From: a virus
Lineage: Duplodnaviria > Heunggongvirae > Uroviricota > Caudoviricetes
Strand: one strand, 5' to 3'
DNA: 55,493 bases
IMG/VR virus record: IMGVR_UViG_2663763400_000006
The notes beneath the pieces were generated by a model. The model was given only the letters and a program-made list of their open reading frames with translations. It ran no database searches and had not been told where the DNA came from. This document shows, one piece after another, positions 7,498 through 39,364 of this stretch. How positions within the stretch are numbered: position 1 is the stretch's first letter; each line of letters starts with the position of its first letter. A program made the position numbers and the translations under genes.

Positions 7498-7521
7498 TCT
7501 GCGGCGTTAACTGATAAGGCG

Positions 7522-8067: not shown

Positions 8068-8153
8068 CAGGTTCAAAAATGGCGAAAGTCGGTCTGCGGG
8101 AACAGAACCGACTTTCAGGTGCAAATCGTAACACACTCATTGCGGGAGGAATT

Positions 8154-10080: not shown

Positions 10081-10147
10081 TGAAACAGGTGAGTTGATTT
10101 CAAACTGTAGTACAATTCTCTCCAGTTTGAACAGGAAAGAATATGCT

Positions 10148-10480: not shown

Positions 10481-10736
10481 AAATAATTTGTTTCTAAACG
10501 ACTAAAATATGGAGGCTCTTATATTTATATGAGCCTCGTTTTATGCTTTTTGTTAATGTCTTTATTTTTTTATGTATTCTTTTGTGCTTTCAAGATTATG
10601 GCGTAAGAAAATTGCAATACGATTATTGTTGTATATTCAAGATAATGTGACCTTAATTGTCTTTTTAAATAAAAATTAAACAAAAATTATATCTCACCAC
10701 TAAGGTTTATAAAAGCATACGTTAGCAGGTGTCACC

Positions 10737-13826: not shown

Positions 13827-14022
13827 TTGTTTTTTGGCTTTTGATTTTACATAATCATTTTGCCATAATCATGTCATCGGAGCCTGAACAACTCCGGTGA
13901 CTTCTGCGCTAAACGGGGACGTTTATGCGCACATACAATCCAAACTCTCTTCTCCCTTCACAGATGCAGAGATGCACCTGCGATTTTTTGCATCCAGCGT
14001 TTGACCTCTGCGGAGGTGAAGC

Positions 14023-14478
14023 GTGAATCTCCCACAAGATGGCATCAAATTACATCGCGGTAACTTCACCGCTATCGGTCGGCAGATCCAGCCTTATCTG
14101 GAGGAGGGCAAATGCTTTCGCATGGTGCTTAAACCGTGGCGTGAGAAACGCAGTCTTTCCCAGAATGCACTCAGCCACATGTGGTACAGCGAAATCAGTG
14201 AATACCTCATCAACAGGGGTAAAACGTTCGCCACTCCAGCTTGGGTAAAAGATGCTCTCAAACACACATATCTCGGTTATGAAACCAAAGACCTGGTTGA
14301 TGTCGTAACCGGTGATATCACCACTATCCAGTCGTTACGCCATACCTCCGATCTTGATACCGGAGAGATGTATGTCTTCCTGTGTAAGGTTGAAGCCTGG
14401 GCGGTGAATATTGGCTGCCACCTGACTATTCCGCAGAGCTGCGAGTTCCAGCTGCTCCGTGACAAGCAGGAGGCGTAA
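14023..14478 (+). CDS. ybcN: YbcN/NinB-like protein
   Basis: 151 aa (GTG start with GGAGG Shine-Dalgarno); matches DLP12 YbcN as recalled and occupies the NinB position. Confidence 0.6.
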
Positions 14479-14648
14479 TGGCTACACCGCTTATTCGTGT
14501 CATGAACGGACACATCTACAGAGTATCAAATCGTCGTAAGCGTAAGCCTGAGCCGAAGCCATCCGAAATACCAACACTGCTCGGATATACCGCTAGCCTG
14601 GTTGATAAAAAATGGTTGCGACTGGCAGCAAGGAGGAATCATGGCTGA
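14478..14648 (+). CDS. ninE: NinE
   Basis: 56-aa [35 protein letters not shown]... read from the sequence (too short for the ORF track); start overlaps the ybcN stop. Confidence 0.55.
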   Translation: MATPLIRVMNGHIYRVSNRRKRKPEPKPSEIPTLLGYTASLVDKKWLRLAARRNHG

Positions 14649-14931
14649 TTTGAGAAAAGCAGCGCGTGGTCGGGAATGCCAGGTAAGAATCCCTGGCGTA
14701 TGTAATGGCAATTCTGAAACGTCTGTACTGGCACATATCCGGCTGGCTGGATTGTGCGGTACCGGTATCAAACCGCCAGACCTGATTGCCACCATTGCAT
14801 GTTCTGCCTGCCACGACGAAATCGACCGCCGCACACATTTTGTCGATGCTGCATATGCAAAAGAATGCGCGCTGGAAGGTATGGCGAGAACACAGGTTAT
14901 CTGGCTGAAAGAGGGGGTTATTAAGGCGTGA
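14641..14931 (+). CDS. ybcO: YbcO-like protein (DUF1364, putative nuclease)
   Basis: Cys-rich protein ([11 protein letters not shown]...CSACHDEID); ATG at 14641 overlapping ninE. Confidence 0.55.
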
Positions 14932-15290
14932 ATACCTACAGTATCACATTACCCTGGCCGCCGAGCAATAATCGCTATTACCGCCATAATCGCGGGCGCA
15001 CGCACGTCAGCGCAGAGGGGCAGGCATACCGCGATAACGTCGCCCGAATCATTAAAAACGCAATGCTGGATATCGGCCTAGCTATGCCTGTGAAAATCCG
15101 CATTGAGTGCCACATGCCGGATCGCCGTCGCCGTGACCTGGATAATCTGCAAAAAGCCGCTTTTGACGCACTCACTAAAGCAGGTTTCTGGCTGGATGAT
15201 GCTCAGGTCGTTGATTACCGCGTTGTGAAGATGCCTGTTACCAAAGGTGGGAGGCTGGAACTGACCATCACCGAAATGGGGAATGAATGA
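14928..15290 (+). CDS. rusA: Holliday junction resolvase RusA
   Basis: 120 aa, [42 protein letters not shown]... matches E. coli RusA as recalled. Confidence 0.9.
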
Positions 15291-15427
15291 TGTTTGAGTT
15301 TAATATGGCAGAATTTCTTCGCCACCGCTGGGGGCGTCTGCGCTTATATCGTTTCCCCGGTTCTGTTTTGACCGATTACCGAATACTGAAGAATTACGCC
15401 AAAACCCTGACAGGAGCAGGAGTATGA
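15287..15427 (+). CDS. ylcG: YlcG-like small protein
   Basis: 46-aa [26 protein letters not shown]... read from the sequence, overlapping the rusA stop. Confidence 0.4.
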
Positions 15428-15511
15428 AGTCAGAGATAACAATCAACTAATACTGTTTTGTTGATTTTTGCTTGTAATTGGCGTTCTGGCCTGATTTTGT
15501 GGAGAAAGTTG

Positions 15512-15868
15512 ATGCGTGATATGTATGAAGTAATGGATCGTTGGGGAGCTTGGGCTGCTTCAGACAATAGCGGAGTGGACTGGCAGCCGATAGCGGCTGG
15601 TTTCAAGGGACTTTTACCTCATGGCAAAAAGTCACGGATTCAGTGTGATGATGACGAAGGCATCATGATAGACAGTTGTGTGGCTCGGTTGAGAAGGTAT
15701 AAACCAGAGGAATATGAGCTCATCATCGCCCACTTTGTTATCGGTATCTCATTACGCACTATTGCGAAGAAGAGAAAATGCTCTGATGGCACAATTAGGA
15801 AGGAACTGCAAACTGCAATGGGGTTTGTTGACGGCTGTTTAGCAATGTTAGCTTATAGTATGGCATAA
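15512..15868 (+). CDS. Q: Late-gene antiterminator Q (phage 82/21-type)
   Basis: MRDMYEVMDRWGAWAASDNSGVDWQPIAAGFKGLLP... with Cys/His-rich core; position after rusA. Confidence 0.7.
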   Translation: MRDMYEVMDRWGAWAASDNSGVDWQPIAAGFKGLLPHGKKSRIQCDDDEGIMIDSCVARLRRYKPEEYELIIAHFVIGISLRTIAKKRKCSDGTIRKELQTAMGFVDGCLAMLAYSMA

Positions 15869-20483: not shown

Positions 20484-20678
20484 TCATCCATCATCACTTT
20501 GGATTGATGTATATGCTCTCTTTTCTGACGTTAGTCTCCGACGGCAGGCTTCAATGACCCAGGCTGAGAAATTCCCGGACCCTTTTTGCTCAAGAGCGAT
20601 GTTAATTTGTTCAATCATTTGGTTAGGAAAGCGGATGTTGCGGGTTGTTGTTCTGCGGGTTCTGTTCTTCGTTGACAT
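20484..20678 (-). CDS. Small conserved prophage protein (DUF3950/YlcI-like)
   Basis: 64-aa basic ORF in the segment between bor and cos, which resembles the lambda right end as recalled. Confidence 0.45.
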   Translation of the reverse strand: MSTKNRTRRTTTRNIRFPNQMIEQINIALEQKGSGNFSAWVIEACRRRLTSEKRAYTSIQSDDG

Positions 20679-21612: not shown

Positions 21613-25293
<3,681 letters not shown>

Positions 25294-25313
<20 letters not shown>

Positions 25314-26959: not shown

Positions 26960-26995
26960 ACCCTTCATCACTAAAGGCCGCCTGTGCGGCTTTTT
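26960..26995 (+). terminator. Hairpin plus T-tract between D and E
   Basis: ggccgcctgtgcggc followed by ttttttt. Confidence 0.4.
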
Positions 26996-27010
26996 TTACG
27001 GGATTTTTTT

Positions 27011-27256
27011 ATGTCGATGTACACAACCGCCCAGCTGCTGGCGGCAAATGAGCAGAAATTTAAGTTTGATCCGCTGTTTCTGCGTCTCTTTTTCCGTGAG
27101 AGCTATCCCTTCACCACGGAGAAAGTCTATCTCTCACAAATTCCGGGGCTGGTAAACATGGCGCTGTACGTTTCGCCGATTGTTTCCGGTGAGGTTATCC
27201 GCTCCCGTGGCGGCTCCACCTCTGAATTTACGCCGGGATATGTCAAGCCGAAGCAC
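27011..27256 (+). pseudogene. E: Major capsid protein E, 5' fragment truncated by an insertion
   Basis: MSMYTTAQLLAANEQKFKFDPLFLRLFFRESYPFTTEKVYLSQIPGLVNMALYVSPIVSGEVIRSRGGSTSEFTPGYVKPKH then diverges into 9 unrelated codons and a stop at 27286. Confidence 0.85.
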
Positions 27257-27365
27257 TTAGCATGGCTTTCTGAGGCTTTCGTGTAGTTGCTGGTTTTTAC
27301 ACTTAATCTTTTGATAATAAAGAATAAGTTTATCTGGTGCTTTCACTGAATTTTCCTCGTTATCT

Positions 27366-27403
27366 GTGTGTTGCAATCATCTCTGTATTGCAGCTTGTAT
27401 TGC
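27366..27403. repeat. TGTATTGCA-type direct repeats upstream of the island integrase (possible arm sites)
   Basis: ctgtgtgttgcaatcatctctgtattgcagcttgtattgc; a similar pair occurs near the right end at about 38014-38040. Confidence 0.4.
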
Positions 27404-27418
27404 TTTTTGGGGCTAAAA

Positions 27419-28654
27419 ATGGCTGGCGAGAACAAACTGAGCGACAAAGCGCTTAAAGGATATCTGGGGAAACCCAGAGAAAAGCAGATCACCATTGCTG
27501 ATGGAAAGGGGCTTTCTATTCGTGTGAGTACTAAAGGGGCTGTGAGCTTTGTTTTCTTCTACAGGTTAGCAGGTGGCCGGGCTGCTCCGGTCTGGCTAAC
27601 GTTGGGTAAATATCCTGATATGTCACTCAAACAGGCAAGGGAAAAGCGCGACGAGTGCCGTGGTTGGTTGGCTGACAAACGTGATCCGCGTATCCAGATT
27701 AAGATTCAGGCTGAAGAACGCTTAAAGCCGGTCACTGTGGAGGATGCACTAAATTACTGGTATGAAAATTACTGTAAGGTGCGTCGTAAAACTCATGCTG
27801 TAACGCTTGGCAGATTTCGAAAGCATATCTTTCCCTATATCGGTCATTTGCCCGTAAATGACACTCACCTATATGAATGGCTGGACTGTTTTGACCGAAT
27901 TAAACGTAATGCACCAGTTATGGCGGCGTATGTTTTTTCTGACACTAAATTAGCTCTTCGTTTTTGTCGGGTACGCCAGTACGCGACGTGTGATGCTTTA
28001 AAGGATTTGCGCATGAGTGATGTGGGGCAGATTGCAGGTAAGCGGGATCGGGTTCTGGATGAAGCCGAACTCGGCCAGCTCTGGAAGGCAATTTTTGTCG
28101 AGCCTGATTTAAAACTAATGTCTGAATACACGCGAAAAATGTTTGTGCTTTGTACAGTATTTGGATGTCGAATGAGTGAAGCCCGATTATCAGAATGGAG
28201 CGAATGGGATCTCGAAAGTTGGGTTTGGACTGTACCAAAAGATCACTCAAAAACTGGTGTTGAAATCGTCAGACCAGTACCTGAAATTCTACGACAGTGG
28301 GTAACGGATGTTCACGAAGAGACAAAACATACTGGTTATGTGCTGGGAAGTCTGCGAATTAGAGAAAGCGTAAGCAAGATTGGGGGGAAAATCGGTAAAC
28401 GTTTGGGCCATGAAAAACAATGGTCACTACACGACCTTAGAAGAACGCTATCTACTCATCTAAGTGATCTCGGTGTTGAATTTTATGTAGTAGAACAACT
28501 GTTAGGCCATGCGCTACCTGGCGTGGCAGGTGTTTACAACCGGAGTAAGTTTATGGCTAAAAAACTGGATGCTCTGGAACTCTGGACTACATATCTCAAT
28601 AGCATCGCAGGTGCTGATTCAAAAGTGACAATCCTCAAACAAAAGGTTGGTTAA
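27419..28654 (+). CDS. int: Island tyrosine integrase (P4/CP4-57 type)
   Basis: MAGENKLSDKALKG...GKGLSIRVSTKG N-terminus typical of P4-family integrases; C-terminal HDLRRT...LGHA...YNRSK catalytic motifs. Confidence 0.85.
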   Translation: MAGENKLSDKALKGYLGKPREKQITIADGKGLSIRVSTKGAVSFVFFYRLAGGRAAPVWLTLGKYPDMSLKQAREKRDECRGWLADKRDPRIQIKIQAEERLKPVTVEDALNYWYENYCKVRRKTHAVTLGRFRKHIFPYIGHLPVNDTHLYEWLDCFDRIKRNAPVMAAYVFSDTKLALRFCRVRQYATCDALKDLRMSDVGQIAGKRDRVLDEAELGQLWKAIFVEPDLKLMSEYTRKMFVLCTVFGCRMSEARLSEWSEWDLESWVWTVPKDHSKTGVEIVRPVPEILRQWVTDVHEETKHTGYVLGSLRIRESVSKIGGKIGKRLGHEKQWSLHDLRRTLSTHLSDLGVEFYVVEQLLGHALPGVAGVYNRSKFMAKKLDALELWTTYLNSIAGADSKVTILKQKVG

Positions 28655-28655
28655 C

Positions 28656-28883
28656 ATGAAAAAAATGGCAATTGTTGATAAAAAGGGTCTGGAGTACATT
28701 CCTAACATTGACCGAATGATCCGTGAGAAAGAATGTCGGGAGCTAACCACTCTTGCGAACAGCACACGCTGGAAGCTGGAGAAGGAAGGAAAATTTCCTA
28801 AGCGGATCAAGATTGGTTCCACTGCTGTTGCATATCGTCTTTCAGAAGTGCAGGCATGGATTCGAGGTGAGTGGGTAGTTTAA
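28656..28883 (+). CDS. alpA: AlpA-family excisionase/transcriptional regulator
   Basis: MKKMAIVDKKGLEYIPNIDRMIREKECRELTTLANSTRWKLEKEGKFPKRIKIGSTAVAYRLSEVQAWI, AlpA-like HTH; directly follows the integrase. Confidence 0.7.
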   Translation: MKKMAIVDKKGLEYIPNIDRMIREKECRELTTLANSTRWKLEKEGKFPKRIKIGSTAVAYRLSEVQAWIRGEWVV

Positions 28884-28952
28884 ATTATCTCAGAATAAAA
28901 TATTATGAATTACTGATTTGAGAATTTGTACTCAAATCAGTAATAACATTCT

Positions 28953-29489
28953 TTATAAGAGATTAAATCCAAATAAAGAGTAATCATATACCGGGGTGCA
29001 TTGCATTCCACTGAATATGCTGATGTTTTTTTCTGTTTCTATCCTTTTTTCAATAAGTTGTTGTATATTTTTACAGTACAATTTGTGTGTGATGTTATTA
29101 TCGTAAGCCTGATATAGCAACGTCAATGTTGACGCTAGGAAACATACAGATAAAATTAAAGTAACATATGCGGTTTTTTTATTTTTTGTCCATGATCTAT
29201 TTGTTTGTGAAATATAAAGAATTCTGATGTGGATAATGGTGAGAGACAATAGCAGGCCACTCAATAAAATAAGTATTGGGTTTGCGTATTTTATTAATGG
29301 TTGAGAGCAAAAAACTATTATAGCTCCTGTGACTGCGTATGAGAAAAAGGAGTAATTAAACTTCTTACTCCTTCTCTCAAGTATTTTAATTTCATCTTGT
29401 GTGGGGGTTTTAGATGCCTCTAATATAAGTTTATTGAATGTTTCTGTTATCTTGTTTTTTGTGTTTGTGGCTATTTTTTTTAGATTCAT
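28953..29489 (-). CDS. Unknown multi-pass membrane protein (island cargo)
   Basis: 178-aa ORF, extremely AT-rich, three to four hydrophobic helices; antisense to int and alpA. Confidence 0.5.
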   Translation of the reverse strand: MNLKKIATNTKNKITETFNKLILEASKTPTQDEIKILERRSKKFNYSFFSYAVTGAIIVFCSQPLIKYANPILILLSGLLLSLTIIHIRILYISQTNRSWTKNKKTAYVTLILSVCFLASTLTLLYQAYDNNITHKLYCKNIQQLIEKRIETEKNISIFSGMQCTPVYDYSLFGFNLL

Positions 29490-29839
29490 AGCATTCTAAC
29501 TCCCTTAACTTATTTATTACTTTCTCTTTATGATAAGAGAGGGGAATGACTTGGTAAAGTGATTTGTCATTAATAATGATAATCCTTGCGATAAATATTT
29601 CTGCAAGTTATTTATCTGTTTGTTGCTATCTTGTTAAGCGTTGGGTGTGGTTTATGTTTGGAGCGACTTTATTTAATCGTGATTTTATGGATTTATATTT
29701 ATATCCTGTAAGATAAGCGCATGTTAGTTCAGGAGTAGTGTCAGATAAAATTATTCGGAGTAGAACTACCTTTTCTGTTTATTGCCAGTATTTACATAGC
29801 AATGCGCCGTAGTTACTCACATCACGGCGCTGATACTAA

Positions 29840-30142
29840 TTATTCAGATTCTTTGGCTTTACGCCGCTGGAGTTCTTCACGAGCGACGGCTACGAGTTGC
29901 CCGATTTCCTCCGCTGCCTTGATGCCGATTTGTTCGACCTTAGCTAAGGCATCCAGTGAAGACACGAGGGGATTTTCTCCGCTTCCTTCTGCCTGGCGGC
30001 GGGCGATCTCACCGCGCATGGCGGTTACTATGAATCCGGCGTTGCTCTCGCCGTCCAGTTTTACGGATTCCATGCCCTCCATAACATCGTGGGGAACCCT
30101 GATCGTTGTCATTTGCGATTTTGCATTTTTGTATACAGACAT
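29840..30142 (-). CDS. Putative ribbon-helix-helix regulator (candidate island repressor)
   Basis: 100-aa ORF (MTTIRVPHDVMEGMESVKL...), divergent from the rightward island operon across a repeat-containing intergenic region. Confidence 0.4.
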   Translation of the reverse strand: MSVYKNAKSQMTTIRVPHDVMEGMESVKLDGESNAGFIVTAMRGEIARRQAEGSGENPLVSSLDALAKVEQIGIKAAEEIGQLVAVAREELQRRKAKESE

Positions 30143-30149
30143 AGTTAAT

Positions 30150-30260
30150 CACCAATTTGTTATGTGTATATCACTATACACAAAAGTGATATATAAAAAC
30201 ACTTGCAATGTATATCACCACAATATAATGTATATCTCACATTATGGTCGCTATGTATCT
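30150..30260. promoter_or_regulatory. Island divergent promoter/operator region with TGTATATCAC-type repeats
   Basis: tgtgtatatcactatacacaaaagtgatatataaaaacacttgcaatgtatatcaccacaatataatgtatatctcaca: four or more copies of TGTATATC(A/T)C in both orientations. Confidence 0.45.
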
Positions 30261-30350
30261 CACAATGATCGATTCATAAAAACGACGAAACCCGGCAGTG
30301 CGCGAACACTAACCGGGCTTCTAACCAAACCGTTAAACGAGGTAACGATT

Positions 30351-30716
30351 ATGGCTGGAACACAGCATACCCAAACTCACCCTAAATTTATATACACCTT
30401 TCTGGCACTACACCACGACCGCATGGCAGATGGAGCAACTACGGTACATGTAGCCGCTGACACGCTGGTTGATGCCCGCAAGATGGTTAAGGAGATGGGC
30501 TATACTGCGGCTTTCTGGAAAGGGCGTGAAGAAAACACGCTGTTTATTCAGAAATGCGAAAACAATTTCATCTGGCGTTTTATCGCCCTGAGTACGGCAC
30601 AACCGCGCGTGATTCACATCGTGGCCACCAGCGAACAGGAAGCCCGCCAGCAATCCCCGGCTGGTTGCGTGAGGGTATTCGCCGCCCGTATTCGTCAGGA
30701 GGTATGCCGTGCTTAA
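30351..30716 (+). CDS. Hypothetical protein, first gene of the rightward island operon
   Basis: 121-aa ORF beginning MAGTQHTQTHPKF; the ORF-track entry 29802..30716 is this gene with a spurious upstream extension. Confidence 0.4.
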   Translation: MAGTQHTQTHPKFIYTFLALHHDRMADGATTVHVAADTLVDARKMVKEMGYTAAFWKGREENTLFIQKCENNFIWRFIALSTAQPRVIHIVATSEQEARQQSPAGCVRVFAARIRQEVCRA

Positions 30717-30894
30717 AACCTTCCGTGTATTTGCCCGAGCGGTTAACCCACGAGGCCACACAATTGGTATCACTCAGAACGTGAAGGCTGTTAATGTTCA
30801 GACGGCTATTGCTGTGGTGAGAAGCGAATCATCAGAATATGGCTTATCACAAGTCATTATTTCAGCAGTGTATGAATTAAAAGAGGTGCATTAA
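30709..30894 (+). CDS. Hypothetical small protein
   Basis: 61-aa ORF, tightly packed with neighbours. Confidence 0.3.
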   Translation: MLKTFRVFARAVNPRGHTIGITQNVKAVNVQTAIAVVRSESSEYGLSQVIISAVYELKEVH

Positions 30895-31085
30895 TGCAGG
30901 AAATTACATTACACGAAGCCGCTGAACGTGCGCACCAGACAGAAATTATTTGCCGCCTTCTTGAGGTATACCCGAACAAAATTACAGATGCTGATATATC
31001 CGCACTGGCGAGCCTACTGGCGCGTCTTTCGGGAAGTGTCGCTAGTTTTTTGATTGAGGAAGAAAGTAAGCTGGTGGGGGATTAA
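30894..31085 (+). CDS. Hypothetical small protein
   Basis: 63-aa ORF, start overlaps the previous stop. Confidence 0.3.
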   Translation: MQEITLHEAAERAHQTEIICRLLEVYPNKITDADISALASLLARLSGSVASFLIEEESKLVGD

Positions 31086-31307
31086 ATGAATACAGAACGG
31101 GAAGTCTTTTTTAAATTGTTAGCATGTGCAGAAAGTTCATTAACTTTAAATAATTCAGCAAAAGCAATATTAAATATGTGGCTTGATTGCATAAATGACA
31201 ATGAAGATGCAAATATTGCTTATGGCCTGTTGTCACTTATTGATGAAGCAGCAGAAAAACTCAATGACGCAATAAATAGTGCCCTGTTATCAAATAAGTC
31301 GAGTTAA
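31086..31307 (+). CDS. Hypothetical small protein
   Basis: 73-aa acidic ORF. Confidence 0.3.
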   Translation: MNTEREVFFKLLACAESSLTLNNSAKAILNMWLDCINDNEDANIAYGLLSLIDEAAEKLNDAINSALLSNKSS

Positions 31308-31324
31308 GTCGAGGAATAAATAAT

Positions 31325-31624
31325 ATGGAAATGAAAAATTCTGGCTTTATTGCCAGCGGCCCCGCTCGGCCTGAATTTATGAACGGCGATATTTACCGCG
31401 ATAAATACGGCGGCACGGTAACGATTAAAGGCGTGGCAGAACGGCGCATCACTTACCGCCGTGAGGGGTATAGCTATGACTGCGTGATGCCTGTTTATCA
31501 GTTCCGGCGTGATTTTTCCCTGGTATATGCCGCACCTCGCAGTAAGCCCACCAGCAGGGAAAAAGCGCGGGGAAACATCCAGAAAATGAAAAGCATGATT
31601 AACGCATTCAGGGGCAAAAAATGA
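31325..31624 (+). CDS. Hypothetical small protein
   Basis: 99-aa ORF overlapping the primase start. Confidence 0.3.
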   Translation: MEMKNSGFIASGPARPEFMNGDIYRDKYGGTVTIKGVAERRITYRREGYSYDCVMPVYQFRRDFSLVYAAPRSKPTSREKARGNIQKMKSMINAFRGKK

Positions 31625-33372
31625 AACTGGCACCGAACTTAAAAAAACAGCCACGCGACAGACTGACAGAGGTAATCATCTTTGCAGGTAGTGATGCGTG
31701 GAGCCATGCGAAAGAGTGGCAGGAATGGGCGGGTAAACATATTGCCGCCGACGATGTGCCGCCTGTCGTGCTGGCTGATGAGCAACTGAAAAACATCATC
31801 GATTACCGGATCATTGATGAAGATCGTCAGTGTGTGCGTGTTTACCGCGCAGGACATATCACAGAGCACAGCATGACGCAGATTGTTACGTTACTGGCTG
31901 TGGCTGGAGTGAAGACCGTACACGAATACGCGGGGATTACTGACACCAGCCCCGTGGATTTATCCGACCAGTTGCCGCGACTCAAAGAGGAATGCGAGCG
32001 TGGGGAAAGTCTGGTGCTTAATCTTCCGACGAAGCAAAAGGCGCAACTTTCACAGATGGCAGACAGTGAACGTGCACAACTACTTGCCGATCGCTTTGAT
32101 GGTGTGTGTGTTCATGCAGAAAGTGAAATCGTCCACGTATGGCGCGGCGGGGTATGGTGTCCGGTCAGCACAATGGAGCTGAGCCGCGAAATGGTGGCGA
32201 TCTATTCAGAGCACAGGGCCACGTTCAGCAAACGTGTAATCAATAACGCCGTGGAAGCGTTAAAAGTTATTGCCGACCCCATGGGGGAGCCGTCCGGTGA
32301 TTTACTACCGTTCACTAATGGTGTGCTTAACCTGAAAACGGGGGATTTTTCTCCGCACTTACCGGAGCACTGGAGCACCACGCACAATGGCATTGAGTAC
32401 ACGCCACCAGTAGCAGGGGAAAACATCCGCGATAATGCGCCAAATTTCCATAAATGGCTTGAACATGCTGCAGGAAAAGACCCGCGCAAGATGATGCGTA
32501 TATGTGCCGCGTTATACATGATTATGGCGAACCGCTACGACTGGCAGATGTTCATTGAGGCCACCGGAGACGGGGGAAGCGGTAAGAGTACATTTACCCA
32601 TATTGCCACCCTGCTTGCTGGCAAACAGAACACCGTAAGCGCAGAGATGACATCACTCGATGATGCAGGAGGGCGCGCGCAGGTTGTCGGGAGTCGTCTT
32701 ATCGTCCTTGCCGATCAGCTGAAATATACGGGGGAAGGCACGGGCATCAAGAAAATCACGGGAGGCGATCCCGTTGAAATTAACCCGAAATATGAGAAGC
32801 GATTCACGACGATAATAAGGGCGGTGGTACTGGCAACCAATAACGACCCGATGATCTTTACCGAACGGGCCGGAGGTGTGTCACGCCGTCGGGTGATTTT
32901 CCGGTTCGACAACATTGTAAGGGAGGACGAAAAAGACAAGGAATTACCGGAAAAGATAGCGGCAGAAATCCCCGTAATTATCCGCCGCTTGCTGGCTAAT
33001 TTTGCTGACCCTGAAAAGGCACGGGCTTTATTACTGGAACAGCGTGACGGTGATGAAGCTCTGGCAATAAAGCAGCAAACGGATCCGGTTGTTGAGCTTT
33101 GCGCGGCGCTGGAGTTTCTGGAGGAAGCTCGTGGGCTAATGATGGGCGGTGGTGGTGACACCGTGAAGTACACGACCAGAAACAGCCTTTACCGTGTCTA
33201 TATGGCCTTCATGGCATATACAGGAAAGGGGAAATGTTTGAGCGTGAATGAGTTCGGAAAGGCTATGAGGTCAGCGGCGAAAGTTTACGGATATGAATAT
33301 ATTACGCGAAAAGTTAAGGGAGTCACGCAGACCAACGCAACGACTACTGATGATTGCGATGCGTTTTTATAA
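31621..33372 (+). CDS. Primase-helicase replication protein (D5_N / P4 alpha-like)
   Basis: 583 aa with Walker A GDGGSGKST and downstream helicase-like motifs. Confidence 0.8.
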   Translation: MKLAPNLKKQPRDRLTEVIIFAGSDAWSHAKEWQEWAGKHIAADDVPPVVLADEQLKNIIDYRIIDEDRQCVRVYRAGHITEHSMTQIVTLLAVAGVKTVHEYAGITDTSPVDLSDQLPRLKEECERGESLVLNLPTKQKAQLSQMADSERAQLLADRFDGVCVHAESEIVHVWRGGVWCPVSTMELSREMVAIYSEHRATFSKRVINNAVEALKVIADPMGEPSGDLLPFTNGVLNLKTGDFSPHLPEHWSTTHNGIEYTPPVAGENIRDNAPNFHKWLEHAAGKDPRKMMRICAALYMIMANRYDWQMFIEATGDGGSGKSTFTHIATLLAGKQNTVSAEMTSLDDAGGRAQVVGSRLIVLADQLKYTGEGTGIKKITGGDPVEINPKYEKRFTTIIRAVVLATNNDPMIFTERAGGVSRRRVIFRFDNIVREDEKDKELPEKIAAEIPVIIRRLLANFADPEKARALLLEQRDGDEALAIKQQTDPVVELCAALEFLEEARGLMMGGGGDTVKYTTRNSLYRVYMAFMAYTGKGKCLSVNEFGKAMRSAAKVYGYEYITRKVKGVTQTNATTTDDCDAFL

Positions 33373-33389
33373 AAAATGGCAATGGTTAT

Positions 33390-33640
33390 CTACCTTGTCT
33401 ACCTGACTGAAATAAAATACTTTTATTTCAATGTATTAATGCAGGTAGATAACTATTTTTCACTGTCTACCTGTTATCTACCTTATCTACCCATTTTTGT
33501 AGACAGGTAAGGAGACGGGTAGAGATGAGGTAGACAGCTATTTGGGGCTGTCTACCTCCCTGAAACCCGCGCCATTACTGGCCTGATAACTAATCAGGTA
33601 GACAAGGTAGACAAGGTGGTGGTGCACAAAAAACTTTTTA
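33390..33640. repeat. Island replication origin iterons
   Basis: Ten or more copies of GGTAGACA / TGTCTACC in both orientations immediately downstream of the primase-helicase gene. Confidence 0.65.
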
Positions 33641-33661
33641 AACGAGGGGGTAAAAATAAAA

Positions 33662-33904
33662 ATGCACACATCAGGAAAACTGAACAAACATATAAAGCCA
33701 CATTACCGCGCCCTTGATATGGCTGAACACTGGCTAAGGGTGGCGATTAAGGCAATAGACCGCAACGCCGGGGAAGGATACGCGAAAGCACATCCCGAAC
33801 TGATAAGCGCATTCATGACAACGGCGGCTGCAAACTTTGCCACGCTGACCGAACGGGAGATTGCCGAAGCGGAGGAAGTGACAACCATCAATATTAAGTC
33901 CTGA
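33662..33904 (+). CDS. Hypothetical protein
   Basis: 80-aa ORF between the origin and ssb. Confidence 0.3.
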   Translation: MHTSGKLNKHIKPHYRALDMAEHWLRVAIKAIDRNAGEGYAKAHPELISAFMTTAAANFATLTEREIAEAEEVTTINIKS

Positions 33905-33915
33905 GAGCAGGCAGC

Positions 33916-34365
33916 ATGACGGCGCAAATAGCAGCTTACGGGCGGCTGGTGGACGACCCACAGGTAAAACATACCAGCAAGGGAACACCCATGACACTGG
34001 CACGGATGGCGGTATCTTTGCCATGCAGCCAGGCAGATGACGGAACGGCGACGATGTGGTTATCTGTGCTGGCGTTTGGCAGACAAGCCGACGCGCTGGC
34101 AAAGCATCACAAAGGCGAACTCCTGAGCGTGGCGGGTAATATGCAGGTGAGCCAGTGGAGCGGACAGAACGGGGAAACGCGGCAGGGCTGGCAGGTTATC
34201 GCAGACAGCGTAATCAGTGCCAGAACGGTGCGACCGGGCGGCAAAAAAGGTCAACAGGGGCAGGCTACTGATGCACTGAACAGAGCAAAACAACAGGCAG
34301 ATCAGCAAGGAAGCCATCCACCAGTGGGAGATAATGAGCAATGGGGAGATGATATTCCGTTTTAA
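33916..34365 (+). CDS. ssb: Single-stranded DNA-binding protein
   Basis: OB-fold-like N-terminal domain and Gly/Gln-rich tail ending in the acidic motif DDIPF. Confidence 0.7.
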   Translation: MTAQIAAYGRLVDDPQVKHTSKGTPMTLARMAVSLPCSQADDGTATMWLSVLAFGRQADALAKHHKGELLSVAGNMQVSQWSGQNGETRQGWQVIADSVISARTVRPGGKKGQQGQATDALNRAKQQADQQGSHPPVGDNEQWGDDIPF

Positions 34366-34575
34366 ATATTGCCAATAAAAAAGGCCGGAAAAAATATATT
34401 TTCCGGCATGCTACATAAATCCCGACCAAAGGGAGTGAAGATATTAACACTAATTATCCGCGCTGAAGTTGTCATCCCAAAACTTTATACAACATTGCAC
34501 TCGGTTGCATGTGTTAGCATGACAAATATCGGTGATAGCATATATCCACAATTATTTTTAATGAATGTAAAGAGG

Positions 34576-35622
34576 ATGAGTATGGTTGATTTATATTCGC
34601 CTGCCCAGCTTGTGCAGGTGGCTAATGCAGAAGAGGTGCAAAAAAAATTAAATGCATTGTTTACCAGTTTGTTTTTCACTCGCTCGGTAATGTTTGAATC
34701 AAGAGACATTATTCTTGATACAATCGACGATCCAAATATCCCAATTGCAGCGTTTTGTTCTCCTATGGTGGGTAGTAAAGTTTCACGTGACGAAGGGTAC
34801 GAATCAAAGACAATTCGTCCAGGCTATATGAAGCCGAAAAGCAGCATTGATCCAAATAAGTTAGCTGTGCGCCCTGCTGGTGTATCACCTGAGCAATACA
34901 ATGCTTTTGGAGCGCGTAATATTAAAGTTAAACAGGCGATTGTAAATCAGGCTAAAGCTATTCGTGCACGTATTGAATGGCTTGCCGTTCAGGCAATCAC
35001 AACGGGGAAAAATATCATTGAGGGCGATGGCATTGAACGCTATGAACTGGACTGGAATATAAAACCACAAAATATTATCACGCAGTCCGGCGGTGCTGAG
35101 TGGTCAGGTAAGGATAAAGAAACTTTTGATCCAAATGATGATATTGAGAGCTACGCAGAATTTAGTGAGGGCGTCACTAATATCATCATTATGGGCGGTA
35201 ATGTATGGAAGAAATACCGTTCATTCAGAGCGATAAAAGAGGCTCTGGATACCCGTCGTGGTTCTAATTCCGAACTGGAAACGGCCCTTAAAGACCTTGG
35301 TGATTCGGTGAGTTTTAAAGGGTATATGGGCGATGTTGCGATTGTTGTATACAGCGGGCGTTATACCGACGAGGACGGAACTGAAAAACATTTCCTTGAT
35401 CCTGATTTGATGGTGCTTGGCAATACGGCTCTTCAGGGGATTGTCGCCTATGGCGGTATTCAGGATCCGGAGCTAATCCGAATGGGGCTGACTAAAGCCG
35501 AACTTGCACCGAAAAACTATATTGTGCCTGGTGATCCGGCTATTGAATATGTGCAGACACATTCAGCACCACAGCCAATACCGGCCCGCATCAATCGTTT
35601 TGTTACCGTTCGCATTGGCTAA
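34576..35622 (+). CDS. Island-encoded major capsid protein homologue (divergent gpE)
   Basis: TQSGGAEWSGKDKETFDPNDDIESYAEF...RSFRAIKEALDTRRGSNSELETALKDLG...YMGDVAIVVYSG aligns with lambda E (TQSGGTEWSKRDKSTYDPTDDIEAYAL...FRSFKAVKEKLDTRRGS.SELETAVKDLG...GDVAIVVYSG); ATG 34576 with AAGAGG Shine-Dalgarno. Confidence 0.8.
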   Translation: MSMVDLYSPAQLVQVANAEEVQKKLNALFTSLFFTRSVMFESRDIILDTIDDPNIPIAAFCSPMVGSKVSRDEGYESKTIRPGYMKPKSSIDPNKLAVRPAGVSPEQYNAFGARNIKVKQAIVNQAKAIRARIEWLAVQAITTGKNIIEGDGIERYELDWNIKPQNIITQSGGAEWSGKDKETFDPNDDIESYAEFSEGVTNIIIMGGNVWKKYRSFRAIKEALDTRRGSNSELETALKDLGDSVSFKGYMGDVAIVVYSGRYTDEDGTEKHFLDPDLMVLGNTALQGIVAYGGIQDPELIRMGLTKAELAPKNYIVPGDPAIEYVQTHSAPQPIPARINRFVTVRIG

Positions 35623-35631
35623 GGGGGAGCA

Positions 35632-35973
35632 ATGGCTACTCATTACACTGAACTCATGGCTGGCACTGAAGCACTGGTGACTACGCTGGGGATATTTTCA
35701 GCTAATAAAGGGGTAATTCCTGCATTTACGCCACTGATGCAGGAAGATGCAACAGGTGCACTGGTGGTATGGGATGGTTCGAGCGTAGGTAAAGCGGTTT
35801 ATGTTTCCGCTGTACAAATCGACACCGCGAAAAAAACACAGGCTCAGGTCTATAAGACAGGTGTCTTAAATGTTGATGCTCTGAACTGGCCTGAGTCTGT
35901 AAAAGAACTGTCAGTAAAGATTGCAGCGTTTGTTGGCTCAGGTATTTCTGTTCAGCCGCTGGCTCGTGTGTAA
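35632..35973 (+). CDS. Island-encoded decoration protein homologue (gpD-like)
   Basis: FTPLMQEDATGALVVWDGSSVGKAV and VYKTGVLNVDALNWPE align with lambda D ([41 protein letters not shown]). Confidence 0.65.
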   Translation: MATHYTELMAGTEALVTTLGIFSANKGVIPAFTPLMQEDATGALVVWDGSSVGKAVYVSAVQIDTAKKTQAQVYKTGVLNVDALNWPESVKELSVKIAAFVGSGISVQPLARV

Positions 35974-35984
35974 AGGGGGATACA

Positions 35985-36368
35985 ATGCAGAATCATTACA
36001 ATGACCTTAAGCCAATTGCCGAAATGATGTATCCGGATCCAGCAGTAGAGGAATTAAAGGCTATTGCTGACAAAATGCGTTTAAGCGAGCGTCTTGTTGA
36101 TATGAATCAGGTGATGGAACTTACAACCCTGAGTCGTCGTACACTGCTAAACCTTGAAGCACGTGGAGAGTTCCCCGAACGCGTGCAGGTTACGGAAGGG
36201 CGTAAGGCCTGGTATTTAAGCGAAGTGATCGACTGGATAAACAATATTCCGCGCGCTTCTGAATATTGCCGCGTACCTGTCCCAAAAAAGCCAGATGCGG
36301 CGCTATGCCTCAAGATTGAGCGTGTACGCCGCAATGCGCGGGATGGTCGCTATAAGCTGATTGGTTGA
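35985..36368 (+). CDS. AlpA-like HTH protein (second copy in the island)
   Basis: LTTLSRRTLLNLEARGEFPERVQVTEGRKAWYLSEVIDWI resembles the AlpA-family HTH signature. Confidence 0.45.
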   Translation: MQNHYNDLKPIAEMMYPDPAVEELKAIADKMRLSERLVDMNQVMELTTLSRRTLLNLEARGEFPERVQVTEGRKAWYLSEVIDWINNIPRASEYCRVPVPKKPDAALCLKIERVRRNARDGRYKLIG

Positions 36369-36379
36369 TGAAATTAGGG

Positions 36380-36470
36380 CCCGTTCTGGCTGGCGGGTCC
36401 TTTCCGGCGATCCAGAACGTTACGGGGCGGCGACCTCGCGGGTTTTCGCTATTTATGAGCATTTTTAGGG
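36380..36470. other. Second cos site (island), cosN conserved with the prophage cos
   Basis: gggtcctttccggcgatccagaacgttacggggcggcgacctcgcgggttttcgctatttatga is nearly identical to 20840-20910; downstream (cosB) sequence differs. Confidence 0.75.
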
Positions 36471-36584
36471 GACTGGTGGTGGTTTTGTTGTTCGCTATAT
36501 CTGTATGAATAATAAGAGAAAAACACAATCAACACACCAACCTGAAACAGTAATTAAGTTGTGGTATCAATGAAATTGCACCTG

Positions 36585-37112
36585 ATGAACAAAAAAAACA
36601 TGGCAAAAAGTTGCCGTGTAAGCGCCACTGCGTTCGATAAGTGGGGAGTGATTCCCGTCGAGCGTAAGGGCCGCGAGGCGTTTTATGATGTCGCCAGTGT
36701 AATAGATAATCGGGTTAACAATGCAATCAGCCAGATTACAAACGAAACGGGCGAGATTGATGATGATGAACTCCTACGAGTCAGGATCAGATTGCTGACA
36801 GCACAGGCAGAGGCGCAGGAGCTTAAAAACGAGCGCGAACGCGGCGACGTTATTGATACAGCGTTTTGTATATACGTGCTTTCAAAACTGGCGAGTCAGA
36901 TTTCTTCAATCATGGACAGCCTGCCGCTTGCCATGACAAGGAAGTTTCCCGACATGAAGCCGTCTATGCTGGATGGACTGAAAAAAGAAGTTATCAGAGC
37001 CTGTAACGCATGCGCAAAACTTGACGAAAACATACCGCTGATGCTGTCCGATTATCTGATGGAAACTGCCGGAAACGTACCGGATAAGTTGCAGCTGAAT
37101 AAAGATAAGTAA
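36585..37112 (+). CDS. Island small terminase homologue (Nu1-like)
   Basis: LLTAQAEAQELKNERERGDVIDTAFCIYVLSKLASQISSIMDSLPLAMTRKFPDMK aligns with prophage Nu1 LTRAQADAQELKNARDSAEVVETAFCTFVLSRIAGEIASILDGIPLSVQRRFPELE; start taken at MNKKNMAK. Confidence 0.75.
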   Translation: MNKKNMAKSCRVSATAFDKWGVIPVERKGREAFYDVASVIDNRVNNAISQITNETGEIDDDELLRVRIRLLTAQAEAQELKNERERGDVIDTAFCIYVLSKLASQISSIMDSLPLAMTRKFPDMKPSMLDGLKKEVIRACNACAKLDENIPLMLSDYLMETAGNVPDKLQLNKDK

Positions 37113-37123
37113 CGTAGTACGCT

Positions 37124-37405
37124 ATGACTGAATCCGAAATACTGCGATTAATCCGCCGTGCTTGTGGAATCAGCAAGCAGCATGACGAACAGGCCACGCA
37201 GCCGGACAGCGTGATCGCCGAAAATTACGCGCGTGTTGTTGCTGATGTGATGCGCCGTGATGGTATTGAGCTTAACGGCGTGGATATGCGCGACATACGG
37301 ATCAGATTCCTTGAGTTGCTGGCATACCGTCGCCGTTCTCAACAACGAAGGGAGAGCGCGAAAAACACTTATCAGTGGAAGAAGCCGGAACGGTTGCGGC
37401 GGTAG
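37124..37405 (+). CDS. Hypothetical protein
   Basis: 93-aa basic ORF following the terS-like gene. Confidence 0.3.
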   Translation: MTESEILRLIRRACGISKQHDEQATQPDSVIAENYARVVADVMRRDGIELNGVDMRDIRIRFLELLAYRRRSQQRRESAKNTYQWKKPERLRR

Positions 37406-38141
37406 ATTCCTGATATTCAGGAAAACCACGAATCCGGGGGTTTTACTGGCGCGGTGTACACGGTGGAACGTATAGCGTTACCTGACTTATTGCATTGTAA
37501 AAAGTTGAAAGGCACGGCCTGTAAGATGGGATGTGGTGAGTAGTTTAAAGCTACCCGCAAATTCTTTCGTTGTGCTGGCACAGGCGGTTAAACCGTCGGT
37601 AACTGGATAATCCCCACTGGGGGAAAAGCTGGCTACATCCCTCACATCTGAGGACTGATAACGCAAAATTGCGTTGGCTGGCAGAGTGCAAATTTGCACG
37701 ATGGCCTAACCCATTGATTCTTTCGAAAACCCCCATTGGGGGAGAACGGGGGAATAAACCTGACTCATTGATTTTTCCACAATCCTTAATTTGAGGAAGC
37801 TGGATAGTTGCACTACCCAAAAAGTGCAGTACCCACATAGCTGCTTAATAGCGTTTATTTTTTCCGCACACCTCAAATCTGAGAAGGCCGGAATGATGAC
37901 ATGGCAGGATTATGATTCCTTGATTTCAAGGAGTCCTCCAGTGTGAAAATGAAATTATCTGGGCTGGTGGGTGAGTTGCTGATCTGCAACTCGGCTATGA
38001 AACTTAATAATCGAACAGCATGTAAATTCATTTCTGTGTATTGCAGCATGTATTGCAACATAGTCATTCTGGTAGAGATTATGCTCTATTTTTCCTCTTA
38101 TATCATTCACATACTTACGTCATTGACTCATGTAGCCGAAG

Positions 38142-38924
38142 CATGAGGTGAATCCGCAGATGACCCTGCGTCGCCTGCCGGATGAAGATCCGCAGAATCT
38201 GGCGGACCCGGCTTACCGCCGCCGTCGCATCATTATGCAGAACATGCGTGACGAAGAGCTGGCCATTGCCCAGGTCGAAGAGATGCAGGCAGTTTCTGCC
38301 GTGCTTAAGGGCAAATACACCATGACCGGTGAAGCTTTCGATCCGGTTGAGGTGGATATGGGCCGCAGTGCGGCCAACAACATCACGCAGTCCGGCGGCA
38401 CGGAGTGGAGCAAGCGTGACAAGTCCACGTATGACCCGACCGACGATATCGAAGCCTACGCGCTGAACGCCAGCGGAGTGGTGAATATCATCGTGTTTGA
38501 TCCGAAAGGCTGGGCGCTGTTCCGTTCCTTCAAAGCCGTCAAGGAGAAGCTGGATACTCGTCGCGGCTCTCATTCCGAGCTGGAGACAGCGGTGAAAGAC
38601 CTGGGCAAAGCGGTGTCCTACAAGGGGATGTATGGCGATGTGGCCATCGTCGTGTATTCCGGACAGTACGTGGAAAACGGCGTCAAAAAGAACTTCCTGC
38701 CGGACAACACGATGGTGCTGGGGAACACTCAGGCACGCGGTCTGCGCACCTATGGCTGCATTCAGGATGCGGACGCACAGCGCGAAGGCATTAACGCCTC
38801 TGCCCGTTACCCGAAAAACTGGGTGACCACCGGCGATCCGGCGCGTGAGTTCACCATGATTCAGTCAGCACCGCTGATGCTGCTGGCTGATCCTGATGAG
38901 TTCGTGTCTGTACAACTGGCGTAA
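38142..38924 (+). pseudogene. E: Major capsid protein E, 3' fragment
   Basis: HEVNPQMTLRRLPDEDPQNLADPAYRRRRIIMQNMRDEE... to the lambda E C-terminus; continues the 5' fragment exactly once the insert is removed. Confidence 0.85.
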
Positions 38925-38965
38925 TCATGGCCCTTCGGGGCCATTTTCTCTCTGTGGAGGAGTTC

Positions 38966-39364
38966 ATGACGAAAGATGAACTGATTGCCCGTCTTCAGGA
39001 GCTGGGTGAGCAACTGAACCGCGATGTCAGTTTGACGGGAACGAAAGAAGAACTGGCGCTTCGTGTGGCAGAGCTGGAAGAAGAGCTTGATGACACGGAT
39101 GAAACTGCCGGTCAGGACACCCCTCTCAGCCGGGAAAATGTGCTGACCGGGCATGAAAATGAGGTGGTATCAGCGCAGCCGGATACCGTGATTCAGGATA
39201 CGGCTGAACTGGTCACGGTTGTGGCACTGGTGACGCTGCATACTGATGCACTTCACGCCACGCGGGATGAACCTGTGGCATTTGTGCTGCCGGGAACGGC
39301 GTTCCGTGTCTCTGCCGGTGTGGCAGCTGAAATGACAGAGCGCGGCCTGGCCAGAATGCAATAA
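38966..39364 (+). CDS. FI: DNA packaging protein FI
   Basis: MTKDELIARLQELGEQLNRDVSLTGTKEELALRVAELEEELDDTDE... matches lambda FI as recalled. Confidence 0.85.
   Translation: MTKDELIARLQELGEQLNRDVSLTGTKEELALRVAELEEELDDTDETAGQDTPLSRENVLTGHENEVVSAQPDTVIQDTAELVTVVALVTLHTDALHATRDEPVAFVLPGTAFRVSAGVAAEMTERGLARMQ

Follow-up and report, generated by a model that had tools for sequence, protein, structure and literature searches.

Results

Five small genes with the junctions of a translationally coupled operon

The window analysed here, the whole of a 55,493-nucleotide stretch of viral DNA (IMG/VR record IMGVR_UViG_2663763400_000006), contains a satellite island within a prophage, and the island contains, at positions 30351-31624, five small open reading frames (ORF1 to ORF5) followed by the island primase gene. 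An earlier note on this DNA had described five tightly packed or overlapping small ORFs between the regulatory region and the primase of a phage satellite, had seen no recognisable motif in any of them, and had suggested helper-interference or regulatory roles. The description of the arrangement is confirmed in its exact coordinates and overlaps (Table 1): a Shine-Dalgarno site lies 5' of every one of the five ORFs, a divergent regulatory region lies on one side of the cluster, and a primase gene of the type carried by phage-inducible chromosomal islands (PICIs) lies on the other. The overlap of ORF1 with ORF2 is 8 nt long, and AGGAGG precedes the GTG start of ORF2 by 6 nt; ORF2 and ORF3 share a common TAATG; the stop of ORF3 and the start of ORF4 abut (TAA directly followed by ATG); ORF4 and ORF5 are separated by a 17-nt gap that contains GAGGA; and ORF5 and the primase gene overlap, stop to start, in ATGA. 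This pattern of junctions is the anatomy of translational coupling.

Several lines of evidence indicate that the five ORFs are genes. ORFs of at least 60 amino acids (aa) cover 98.4% of the plus strand of the interval, versus a mean of 20.9% and a maximum of 77% in dinucleotide-preserving shuffles, none of 1000 of which reached the observed value. The same five coding sequences are called by the NCBI Prokaryotic Genome Annotation Pipeline (PGAP) in Escherichia coli genomes that are 100% identical over positions 29700-33400 (a 3.7-kb query). The ratios of nonsynonymous to synonymous polymorphism (pN/pS), computed on ungapped homologues collected from 200-odd related loci, are 0.14, 0.31, 0.08, 0.30 and 0.39 for ORF1 to ORF5, respectively, and 0.19 for the primase. 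All five ORFs match PHROG families, with E values of 1e-28 to 3e-44, and the primase matches phrog_864 (E 3e-158); megablast of the cluster against a phage collection gave no match. We conclude, on the strength of these sequence comparisons, that the five ORFs are real protein-coding genes under purifying selection.

The earlier statement that no motif is recognisable is wrong for two of the five genes, because ORF1 and ORF5 match named families above their cut-offs (Icd-like NF033153 and DUF4222, respectively). ORF2 to ORF4 match only PHROGs without an assigned function. We regard the genes, their family assignments and the operon anatomy as close to certain: the cluster represents the early operon that is standard in E. 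coli PICIs, and both of its constant proteins, those of ORF1 and ORF5, belong to named families.

Table 1. Positions in the window of the gene cluster, the predicted antisense RNA and neighbouring features
Feature	Position	Strand	Remarks
Capsid gene E fragments	26984-27286 and 38148-38924	+	
int	27368-28654		inward-facing integrase of the island
YlcI/YnfO-family regulator	29840-30142	-	NCBIfam NF041551, 70.5 bits vs. cut-off of 30
Putative divergent promoter/operator region	30143-30283		five TGTATATC(T)CAC copies; TATAAT at 30223-30228
Predicted cis-antisense RNA, ~80 nt	30272-30356	-	below-threshold match to Rfam symR (RF01809); covariation; conserved -10
ORF1	30351-30716	+	121 aa, pI 9.3; tandem Icd-like protein
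ORF2	30709-30894	+	61 aa, GTG start, basic (pI 9.8); single beta-beta-alpha-beta domain
ORF3	30894-31085	+	63 aa, acidic (pI 4.7); probably helical
ORF4	31086-31307	+	73 aa, acidic (pI 4.2); probably helical
ORF5	31325-31624	+	99 aa, basic (pI 10.2); RgdR family, DUF4222
Primase/helicase gene	31621-33372	+	583 aa; D5_N and DUF5906, TIGR01613; final cistron of the operon

A predicted SymR-like RNA is antisense to the start of ORF1

A permissive Rfam scan of the island returned a single match: that is, SymR (RF01809), on the minus strand at positions 30284-30356, with a score of 35.3 bits and an E value of 0.0012; the corresponding scores in related islands are 39.6 and 32.7 bits. The predicted 5' end of the RNA, position 30356, is the sixth nucleotide of ORF1, and the RNA covers the ribosome-binding site and start codon of ORF1. 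The predicted RNA opens with a 5' hairpin in which CCUC, the complement of the ORF1 Shine-Dalgarno sequence, lies in or beside the loop; a conserved UGGUUAG linker leads from there to a GC-rich terminator hairpin, which is followed by a U-rich tail. A -10-like hexamer, TATGCT (TGgTATGAT in other classes), precedes the predicted 5' end by 7 nt, within codons 4-7 of ORF1; the hexamer is conserved across otherwise different ORF1 N-termini and aligns with the TAGAAT of the symR promoter.

Covariation supports the structure and the strand. We collected 38 distinct homologous RNA sequences from related islands and used them as the basis of an alignment and a covariance model. The terminator helix is paired in 98.5-98.6% of cells when the alignment is read as minus-strand RNA and in 85.8% when it is read as plus strand, the difference being 63 G.U cells that become C.A mismatches on the plus strand. 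Six pairs of this helix show compensatory changes, and its covariation score is 0.296, versus 0.122 in column shuffles (0 of 500 as high); controls in which the helix was slid along the alignment give 35-50% pairing. The 5' helix is 89.7% paired and contains one compensatory pair. The minus-strand RNA has a minimum free energy of -34.6 kcal/mol (z -4.73), versus z -1.51 for the plus-strand leader. The results indicate a two-hairpin structure with covariation support.

The relationship to SymR is seen in both directions. The covariance model built from the satellite sequences scores 95.9 bits at this locus and finds K-12 symR at its annotated coordinates and on its annotated strand (28.2 bits, E about 1e-5); it also finds equivalent RNAs in EcCICFT073 (60.4 bits; NC_004431, positions 1380769-1380857) and in Sp7 of O157:H7 Sakai (55.5 bits). 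YCTAACCA, a leader motif conserved in the RNA region, is present upstream of the Icd-like gene in 92 of 107 distinct contexts. Searches of the full-text literature, from whose coverage most subscription journals are absent, returned no description of a SymR-like RNA associated with Icd-like genes. We consider it probable, on the evidence of sequence and covariation, that the antisense RNA is real and repressive, and we infer both its transcription and its repression by polarity.

Two other readings of the hairpin were rejected. A plus-strand leader of the P1 c4 or P4 CI type is opposed by the 63 C.A mismatches, by the plus-strand z score of -1.51, and by the lack of any C4 or isrK match (RF01695, RF01394), there being none at E<=1 in positions 27000-39000 and none at the gathering score in the window. 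A terminator for the divergent regulator is rejected because the hairpin is upstream of that gene on the minus strand.

The SymR-like model has a second, weak match in the window, at positions 8072-8159 on the minus strand (23.6 bits, E about 3e-4), antisense to the Shine-Dalgarno sequence and probable start (ATG near 8160) of a helper replication O-like gene. The match comprises a hairpin (GTCGGTTCTG...CAGACCGAC) followed by TTTCGCCATTTTT, matches no Rfam family, and resembles the lambda oop RNA in position.

ORF1 is an Icd-like tandem, and ORF2 may repeat its fold

ORF1 matches the Icd-like family NF033153 with 72.4 bits (cut-off 25; E 2.3e-20) and is named Icd-like by PGAP. The match is in two stretches, which indicates a tandem of the domain; most relatives of ORF1 have a single domain and about 65 aa. 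The AlphaFold model of ORF1 has two beta-beta-alpha-beta units (mean pLDDT 63.7, about 80 in the N-terminal unit), and its structural neighbours are of the Gp2/eL20 type. ORF1 matches no SymE or AbrB family in Pfam or NCBIfam and is, by that test, not a SymE (AbrB-fold) toxin. Sequence searches of the PDB with ORF1 and with ORF5 gave no significant match, and a structure search of BFVD returned only uncharacterised phage proteins.

The model of ORF2 (pLDDT 93.9) has the same beta-beta-alpha-beta fold, and we read the N-terminal domain of ORF1, the C-terminal domain of ORF1, and ORF2, as modelled, as three copies of one small fold. Profile-profile comparison with hhalign detected no sequence relationship among the N-terminal domain of ORF1, ORF2, ORF3, ORF4 and the alternative cassette families described below, except between two of the latter (fam4 and fam7); the similarity of ORF2 to the Icd-like domain is thus one of predicted structure only. 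ORF2 belongs to PHROG 3672, which has no annotated function, and its family is narrow: that is, 13 clusters, from E. coli wherever the source names an organism. ORF2 is 93% identical to ECs1578 of O157 Sakai, and the C-terminal domain of ORF1 is 56% identical to its Sakai counterpart.

Two side observations concern ORF1 and its family. A terminator-like hairpin (GGCGTGAAGAAAACACGCT then GTTTATTC) lies at positions 30523-30541, on the plus strand, within ORF1, between the two Icd-like domains and close to a recombination breakpoint at ~30569 (see below); the hairpin may well be a chance occurrence, since the scan found 7 such sites vs. 5.5 expected. Many of the long Icd-like proteins in databases (P0086, P0097, P0114 and others) owe their length to erroneous extension upstream, in which the leader and antisense-RNA region is translated, and the peptide LTTND conserved among them is a translation of CTAACCACCAACGAT.

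ORF2 to ORF4 occupy a slot for exchangeable cassettes

We examined 207 related loci, fetched with ORF1, ORF2 or ORF5 as query. These loci essentially always combine an Icd-like gene with a DUF4222 gene and a primase gene, the DUF4222 gene adjoining the primase gene in 207 of 207; ORF2 to ORF4 occur in about half. Across 137 distinct regions, the Icd-like and DUF4222 genes are 217 to 1245 nt apart, and the interval holds varying sets of genes from about eight unrelated families of small proteins. The commonest set is ORF2-ORF3-ORF4, and the alternative families match only PHROGs of unknown function. The mosaic seen among E. coli genomes has breakpoints where ORF1 meets ORF2 and at ~30569, where the second Icd domain starts. 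We conclude, from these comparisons of loci, that the interval between the Icd-like and RgdR-family genes is a swappable cassette slot and that ORF1 and ORF5 are the constant members.

The remaining two cassette genes are conserved and have no annotated function. ORF3 matches phrog_1478 (E 2.5e-34), shares 78% identity with ECs1579, and has the lowest of the pN/pS values reported above; a search of 1.84 billion proteins gave 46 representative clusters for it at E<=1e-3. ORF4 matches phrog_2196 (E 2e-28) and is 31% identical to ECs1580, which itself matches phrog_5796 and phrog_2196; the ORF4 family (family 0) is present in most architectures and is the most widespread family of the slot. A search of a large protein collection with ORF2, ORF3 and ORF4 concatenated gave only two fused matches.

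In two related islands the slot contains RNA genes: that is, isrK (80 and 62 bits) and C4 antisense RNA (76 and 75 bits), all above the Rfam thresholds, at positions 3223-3421 of locus L183 and 3482-3667 of locus L192, respectively, on the plus strand. L183 also contains a match to the c4-a1b1 target and, at the start of its Icd-like gene (3055-3127, minus strand), a SymR-like match, so that some satellites seem to carry two RNA regulators here; the presence of isrK and C4 in the slot fits the remark of Tommasini et al. (PMC10111431) on an 'immunity RNA'.

ORF5 belongs to the RgdR family

ORF5 matches Pfam DUF4222 (PF13973) with 83.2 bits (gathering score 27) and is 74.7% identical, over residues 1-99, to ECs1581, the RgdR protein of E. 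coli O157; in annotation, ORF5 would be better named RgdR family. RgdR activates LEE1 and type III secretion (T3S), represses motility, and binds DNA unspecifically, and variants at its residue 20 alter T3S activation (Flockhart et al., 2012, PMC3378721). RgdR is reported to be encoded by all E. coli PICIs analysed (PMC6092414) and is treated in further literature as a PICI-encoded regulator (PMC10877973). Since ORF5 has NGD in place of the RGD tripeptide, and since the strains found to carry the island (GN06489 and N68 among the carriers) are extra-intestinal or avian isolates, a T3S role is unlikely to be the conserved function of ORF5.

A locus of the same dimensions is linked to cell death in ECOR61

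In E. coli ECOR61, cells die or stop growing in response to orf24, an accessory gene of a phage, and Tn5 suppressors of this effect map to three adjacent genes (QOYT01000045.1:8940-9132, 9131-9317 and 9309-9675; Silas et al., bioRxiv 10.1101/2023.04.06.535777). The three genes have lengths of 192, 186 and 366 nt and overlaps of 1 and 8 nt, values identical to those of ORF3, ORF2 and ORF1. The same study reports that six linked genes, including a primase gene, are needed to reconstitute the effect, that removal of the Icd-like gene abolishes it, and that the Icd-like gene of a P4-like satellite in ECOR15 is likewise a suppressor locus (10.1101/2023.04.06.535777). The Icd-like gene is the likely effector of the ECOR61 cell death. 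In phage P1, icd encodes a reversible inhibitor of cell division, and its mRNA is under the control of the c4 RNA (PMC10695390).

The divergent regulator and the promoter region

The gene divergent from ORF1 encodes a protein that is annotated as YlcI/YnfO in the identical genomes and that has, in addition to its NCBIfam match, a weak Pfam match to the Rv0623-like PSK_trans_fac family; the protein probably represses the rightward operon as a ribbon-helix-helix protein, its DNA binding and its repressor role both being presumed. The five TGTATATC(T)CAC copies in the region between this gene and ORF1 lie at positions 30165-30174, 30185-30193 (inverted), 30209-30218, 30229-30240 and 30252-30264, and the region contains repeats of families D1, D6 and D8 and inverted repeats I3 and I4. 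The sequence features of the region suggest a promoter and operator.

The helper prophage has a ylcI of its own (20484-20678, minus strand), of the same YlcI/YnfO N-terminal family, between its lysis and terminase genes, and the regulators of helper and satellite could conceivably engage in cross-talk.

The island and its helper prophage

The window is a lambdoid prophage in which the early genes are of DLP12 type and the head and tail genes resemble those of lambda. The 10.9-kb island splits the major capsid gene, E, at about residue 80-82, and a 10-bp repeat, AGCCGAAGCA, the att identity block, marks the island edges at 27246-27255 and 38134-38143. Upstream of the split gene lie terminase, portal, protease and D genes; downstream lie FI through the tail genes. 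The gene order within the island is integrase, AlpA, a leftward block of two genes (a membrane protein gene and the YlcI/YnfO-family gene), the five ORFs, primase, a small ORF, single-stranded DNA-binding protein (SSB), and late genes, the last comprising the island's own capsid and decoration homologues, a helix-turn-helix protein and TerS. The island thus has the components that define a Gram-negative PICI (an integrase with AlpA (PF05930), a D5_N/DUF5906 primase, late-zone genes, a size in the range of about 10-15 kb, and an att core) and, in its capsid gene fragments and lambdoid flanks, those that define a helper-embedded PICI (Tommasini et al., 2023). We conclude from its gene content and flanks that it is a helper-embedded PICI of the capE site, a type already described (Tommasini, Mageeney and Williams, 2023, PMC10111431).

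Four further observations concern the island and its helper. First, a 178-aa predicted membrane protein is encoded at positions 28953-29489, on the minus strand, where the GC content is low (35%), between alpA and the regulator gene; it has no family match beyond chance-level matches to SLATT_5 and DUF4231, and is possibly accessory or defence cargo of the island. Second, just 3' of the primase gene, positions 33385-33557 contain iterated repeats (GTTATCTACCTTGTCTACC, twice, and AGGTAGA-N-CTGTCTACCT, twice), in the place expected for the PICI replication origin. Third, in one of the genomes identical over 29700-33400 (L001, positions 14013-15614, a record from which the window differs outside that interval) the helper portal gene has an internal stop and is annotated as a pseudogene; the window equivalent is ~23712-25313, on the plus strand. 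With its capsid gene split by the island as well, the helper may have lost function, which would leave the satellite stranded. Fourth, FDAARGOS_1296 (L214, positions 7479-11942), a different strain from ECOR61, has the same island with identical ORF1 to ORF5 and with a primase gene interrupted by IS66, indicating that the small-gene cluster can persist without a functional primase.

Discussion

A proposed mechanism

We propose that ORF1 to ORF5 and the primase gene form a single, translationally coupled, rightward early/replication operon of the island. In the quiescent island, the rightward promoter would be held by the divergent ribbon-helix-helix-like YlcI/YnfO protein, as we presume, and leaky sense transcript would be neutralised by a constitutive cis-antisense RNA that occludes the ribosome-binding site of ORF1. 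Because coupling ties each downstream start to the stop before it, a block in translation of ORF1 should silence the operon down to the primase. The logic would be that of the P1 c4-icd-ant immunity operon, but with the RNA encoded in cis. Expression of the downstream ant gene of P1 immI reportedly requires translation of icd.

A surge of sense transcription would outrun the RNA, and ORF1 to ORF5 and the primase would then be made. Possible sources of the surge are activation by AlpA (PMC6092414), read-through of the helper's Q-antiterminated late transcript into the co-oriented island (an idea of Tommasini et al., PMC10111431), helper induction, and a phage trigger. ORF1, ORF2 and ORF3 would together impose growth or division arrest through a host target; ORF4 would be a further swappable accessory protein; and ORF5 would be a constant DNA-binding partner or regulator of the replication module, always before the primase. 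We lean towards this composite explanation: that is, an RNA-gated coupled operon, a growth-arrest module, and an RgdR partner. The arrest role of ORF1 to ORF3, which is drawn from analogy with ECOR61 and P1, we judge evenly balanced. The furthest extension of the proposal, in which a Gram-negative PICI replication operon is silenced by a SymR-type RNA and its Icd-like leader, with two small partner proteins, doubles as a phage-sensing, abortive-infection effector, is tentative and less likely than not.

Several observations weigh against the composite explanation. The Rfam score of the antisense RNA, 35.3 bits, is below the gathering score of 61, and the U-tail of the RNA is interrupted (UUUCGUCGUUUUU). 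We infer the equivalence of the cluster to the ECOR61 locus from gene lengths, overlaps and annotation only, and the ECOR61 reconstitution was weak and used over-expression, so that the arrest could be a by-product. ORF1 to ORF5 match no family in the anti-phage defence collection PADLOC-DB 2.0, in which the primase has only a chance-level match (mad3, E 0.013). The beta-beta-alpha-beta fold is too common to point to a target, and the model of ORF1 is of only moderate confidence. Residues 20-22 of ORF5 are NGD, not RGD, and the measured activities of RgdR (LEE activation, motility repression, unspecific DNA binding) leave its constant pairing with the primase unexplained.

Alternative explanations

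That pairing, in 207 of 207 loci and with an ATGA overlap, together with DNA binding by RgdR, is what would be expected if the operon served only replication and regulation, with the small proteins acting as replication or excision cofactors or regulators of the satellite (for example, with the RgdR-like protein binding the origin or loading the primase) and having no role in host arrest. The ECOR61 toxicity would then be runaway satellite replication once the phage trigger has induced the island, of the kind seen upon over-expression of AlpA with EcCICFT073 (PMC6092414), and insertions in ORF1 to ORF3 would suppress it through polarity on the primase, for which tight translational coupling provides a basis. 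All six genes, including the primase gene, are indeed needed to reconstitute the ECOR61 effect, but removal of the Icd-like gene alone abolished it, and no suppressor insertions are reported in the equivalents of ORF4, ORF5 or the primase gene, where pure polarity predicts them. Moreover, the Icd family takes its name from a division inhibitor, and ORF2 to ORF4, unlike core replication factors, are swapped for unrelated cassettes beside the same primase. We consider an operon for replication and regulation alone unlikely.

A second alternative takes the Icd-like protein as toxin and the SymR-like RNA as antitoxin of a type I toxin-antitoxin addiction module that stabilises the island or prophage or aborts infection and leaves the downstream genes uncontrolled. 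The geometry of the RNA is that of SymR/SymE, and the similarity is reciprocal; SymR, however, is a stable RNA present in large excess (PMC1891008), unlike classical addiction antitoxins. The RNA and ORF1 recombine as a module, with breakpoints at the ORF1/ORF2 junction and ~30569, and toxicity has been attributed to Icd-like genes in two satellites; yet in the loci examined the Icd-like gene is never free-standing, being always the first cistron with its stop overlapping the next start, and some relatives retain the RNA region although their Icd-like gene is a pseudogene with an internal stop. We consider a pure addiction module quite improbable.

Action on the helper has precedents among small genes that precede the primase in other satellites, for example P4 epsilon. 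We nevertheless regard as very improbable the strict form of the role suggested in the earlier note, in which the proteins would reduce the helper burst through capsid assembly, packaging or late transcription: although ORF2 to ORF4 vary between islands, as interference and accessory genes often do, the five ORFs match no interference-annotated family in Pfam, NCBIfam or PHROG, the island's candidates for interference (its capsid, decoration and TerS homologues) all lie downstream of the primase, deletion of c1499 or c1500 in CFT073 left island transfer unaffected and EcCICFT073 interference was examined in a different gene set (PMC6092414), and those phenotypes that have been measured for members of the families are effects on the host. 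A regulatory role, the other half of that suggestion, or a host-directed one fits both the RgdR orthology of ORF5 and the growth arrest in ECOR61.

Comparison with known systems

The island type is already known, RgdR has been characterised experimentally, and a phenotype has been reported for a locus whose genes have identical lengths and overlaps. The presence of a SymR-like RNA at the head of the operon, the repetition of the Icd-like fold by ORF2, and the cassette nature of the ORF2-ORF4 slot appear to be undescribed. The ECOR61 locus (Silas et al., 10.1101/2023.04.06.535777) agrees with the cluster in gene lengths, overlaps and six linked genes including a primase gene, but is called a prophage system in the preprint, which mentions neither the RNA nor a satellite. 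ORF5 agrees with RgdR (ECs1581) in length (99 aa), basic character, DUF4222 domain and position directly before the primase, and differs from it in having NGD vs. RGD.

A close match in architecture is '11capE' (E:Phage_cap_E_80, PMC10111431), an 11-kb island that is likewise co-oriented within a lambdoid capsid gene, has a capsid homologue of its own, and has a 10-bp att identity block. The interval between integration and replication genes is termed the 'Bro zone' in that study and contains Bro-network proteins and C4/isrK RNAs, neither of which is present in the interval here; in place of a Bro zone, this island has the Icd-like gene, three cassette genes, RgdR, and the SymR-like RNA.

In P1 immI (c4, icd, ant), as proposed here, a small RNA acts at the ribosome-binding site of a first cistron of the Icd family, and downstream genes depend on translation. 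However, c4 lies upstream on the same strand and pairs through short complementary loops, whereas the RNA here would be a full cis-antisense RNA; and the downstream gene in immI is an antirepressor, whereas here the downstream genes are cassette genes, RgdR and the primase.

SymR of K-12 is a 77-nt RNA that is transcribed from a promoter inside symE and represses SymE synthesis (Kawano et al., 2007, PMC1891008). The two RNAs are alike in the -10 element, the 7-nt spacer, the A start, the CAUAA over the start codon, the anti-Shine-Dalgarno sequence in the first hairpin, the UG(G/A)UUAG linker, and the GUGUU(C/G)GCGCAC terminator loop. They differ in their targets: the target here is Icd-like, not AbrB-fold SymE, and is the first gene of a six-gene operon. 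As for LexA control, inspection of the sequence by eye showed no obvious box, and no formal LexA search was made. If the silencing and effector proposal is true, the symER cassette of K-12 shares an RNA control module with satellites. If the antisense RNA is real, it joins observations that have stood separately (Icd-like genes in most satellites, the Icd-like death phenotype, and SymR/SymE as an isolated chromosomal oddity), and it supplies a missing piece of the biology of Gram-negative PICIs, which reportedly lack a clear master repressor.

The island is also closely similar to EcCICFT073 and to Sp7/OI-51 (CP-933C) of O157:H7. Both have int, alpA, a divergent YlcI/YnfO gene, an Icd-like gene, small ORFs, a DUF4222 gene (c1493 and ECs1581, respectively) and a primase gene, followed by a small ORF, SSB and late-zone genes. 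Both differ from this island in being located beside roxA, and not within a helper capsid gene, and in having an Icd-like protein of about 65 aa, and not a 121-aa tandem. Within the slot, Sp7 differs in ECs1580, which has only the 31% identity to ORF4 given above, and EcCICFT073 differs in having four different small ORFs. The same antisense RNA is predicted at the head of both operons, and of these islands EcCICFT073 is experimentally tractable.

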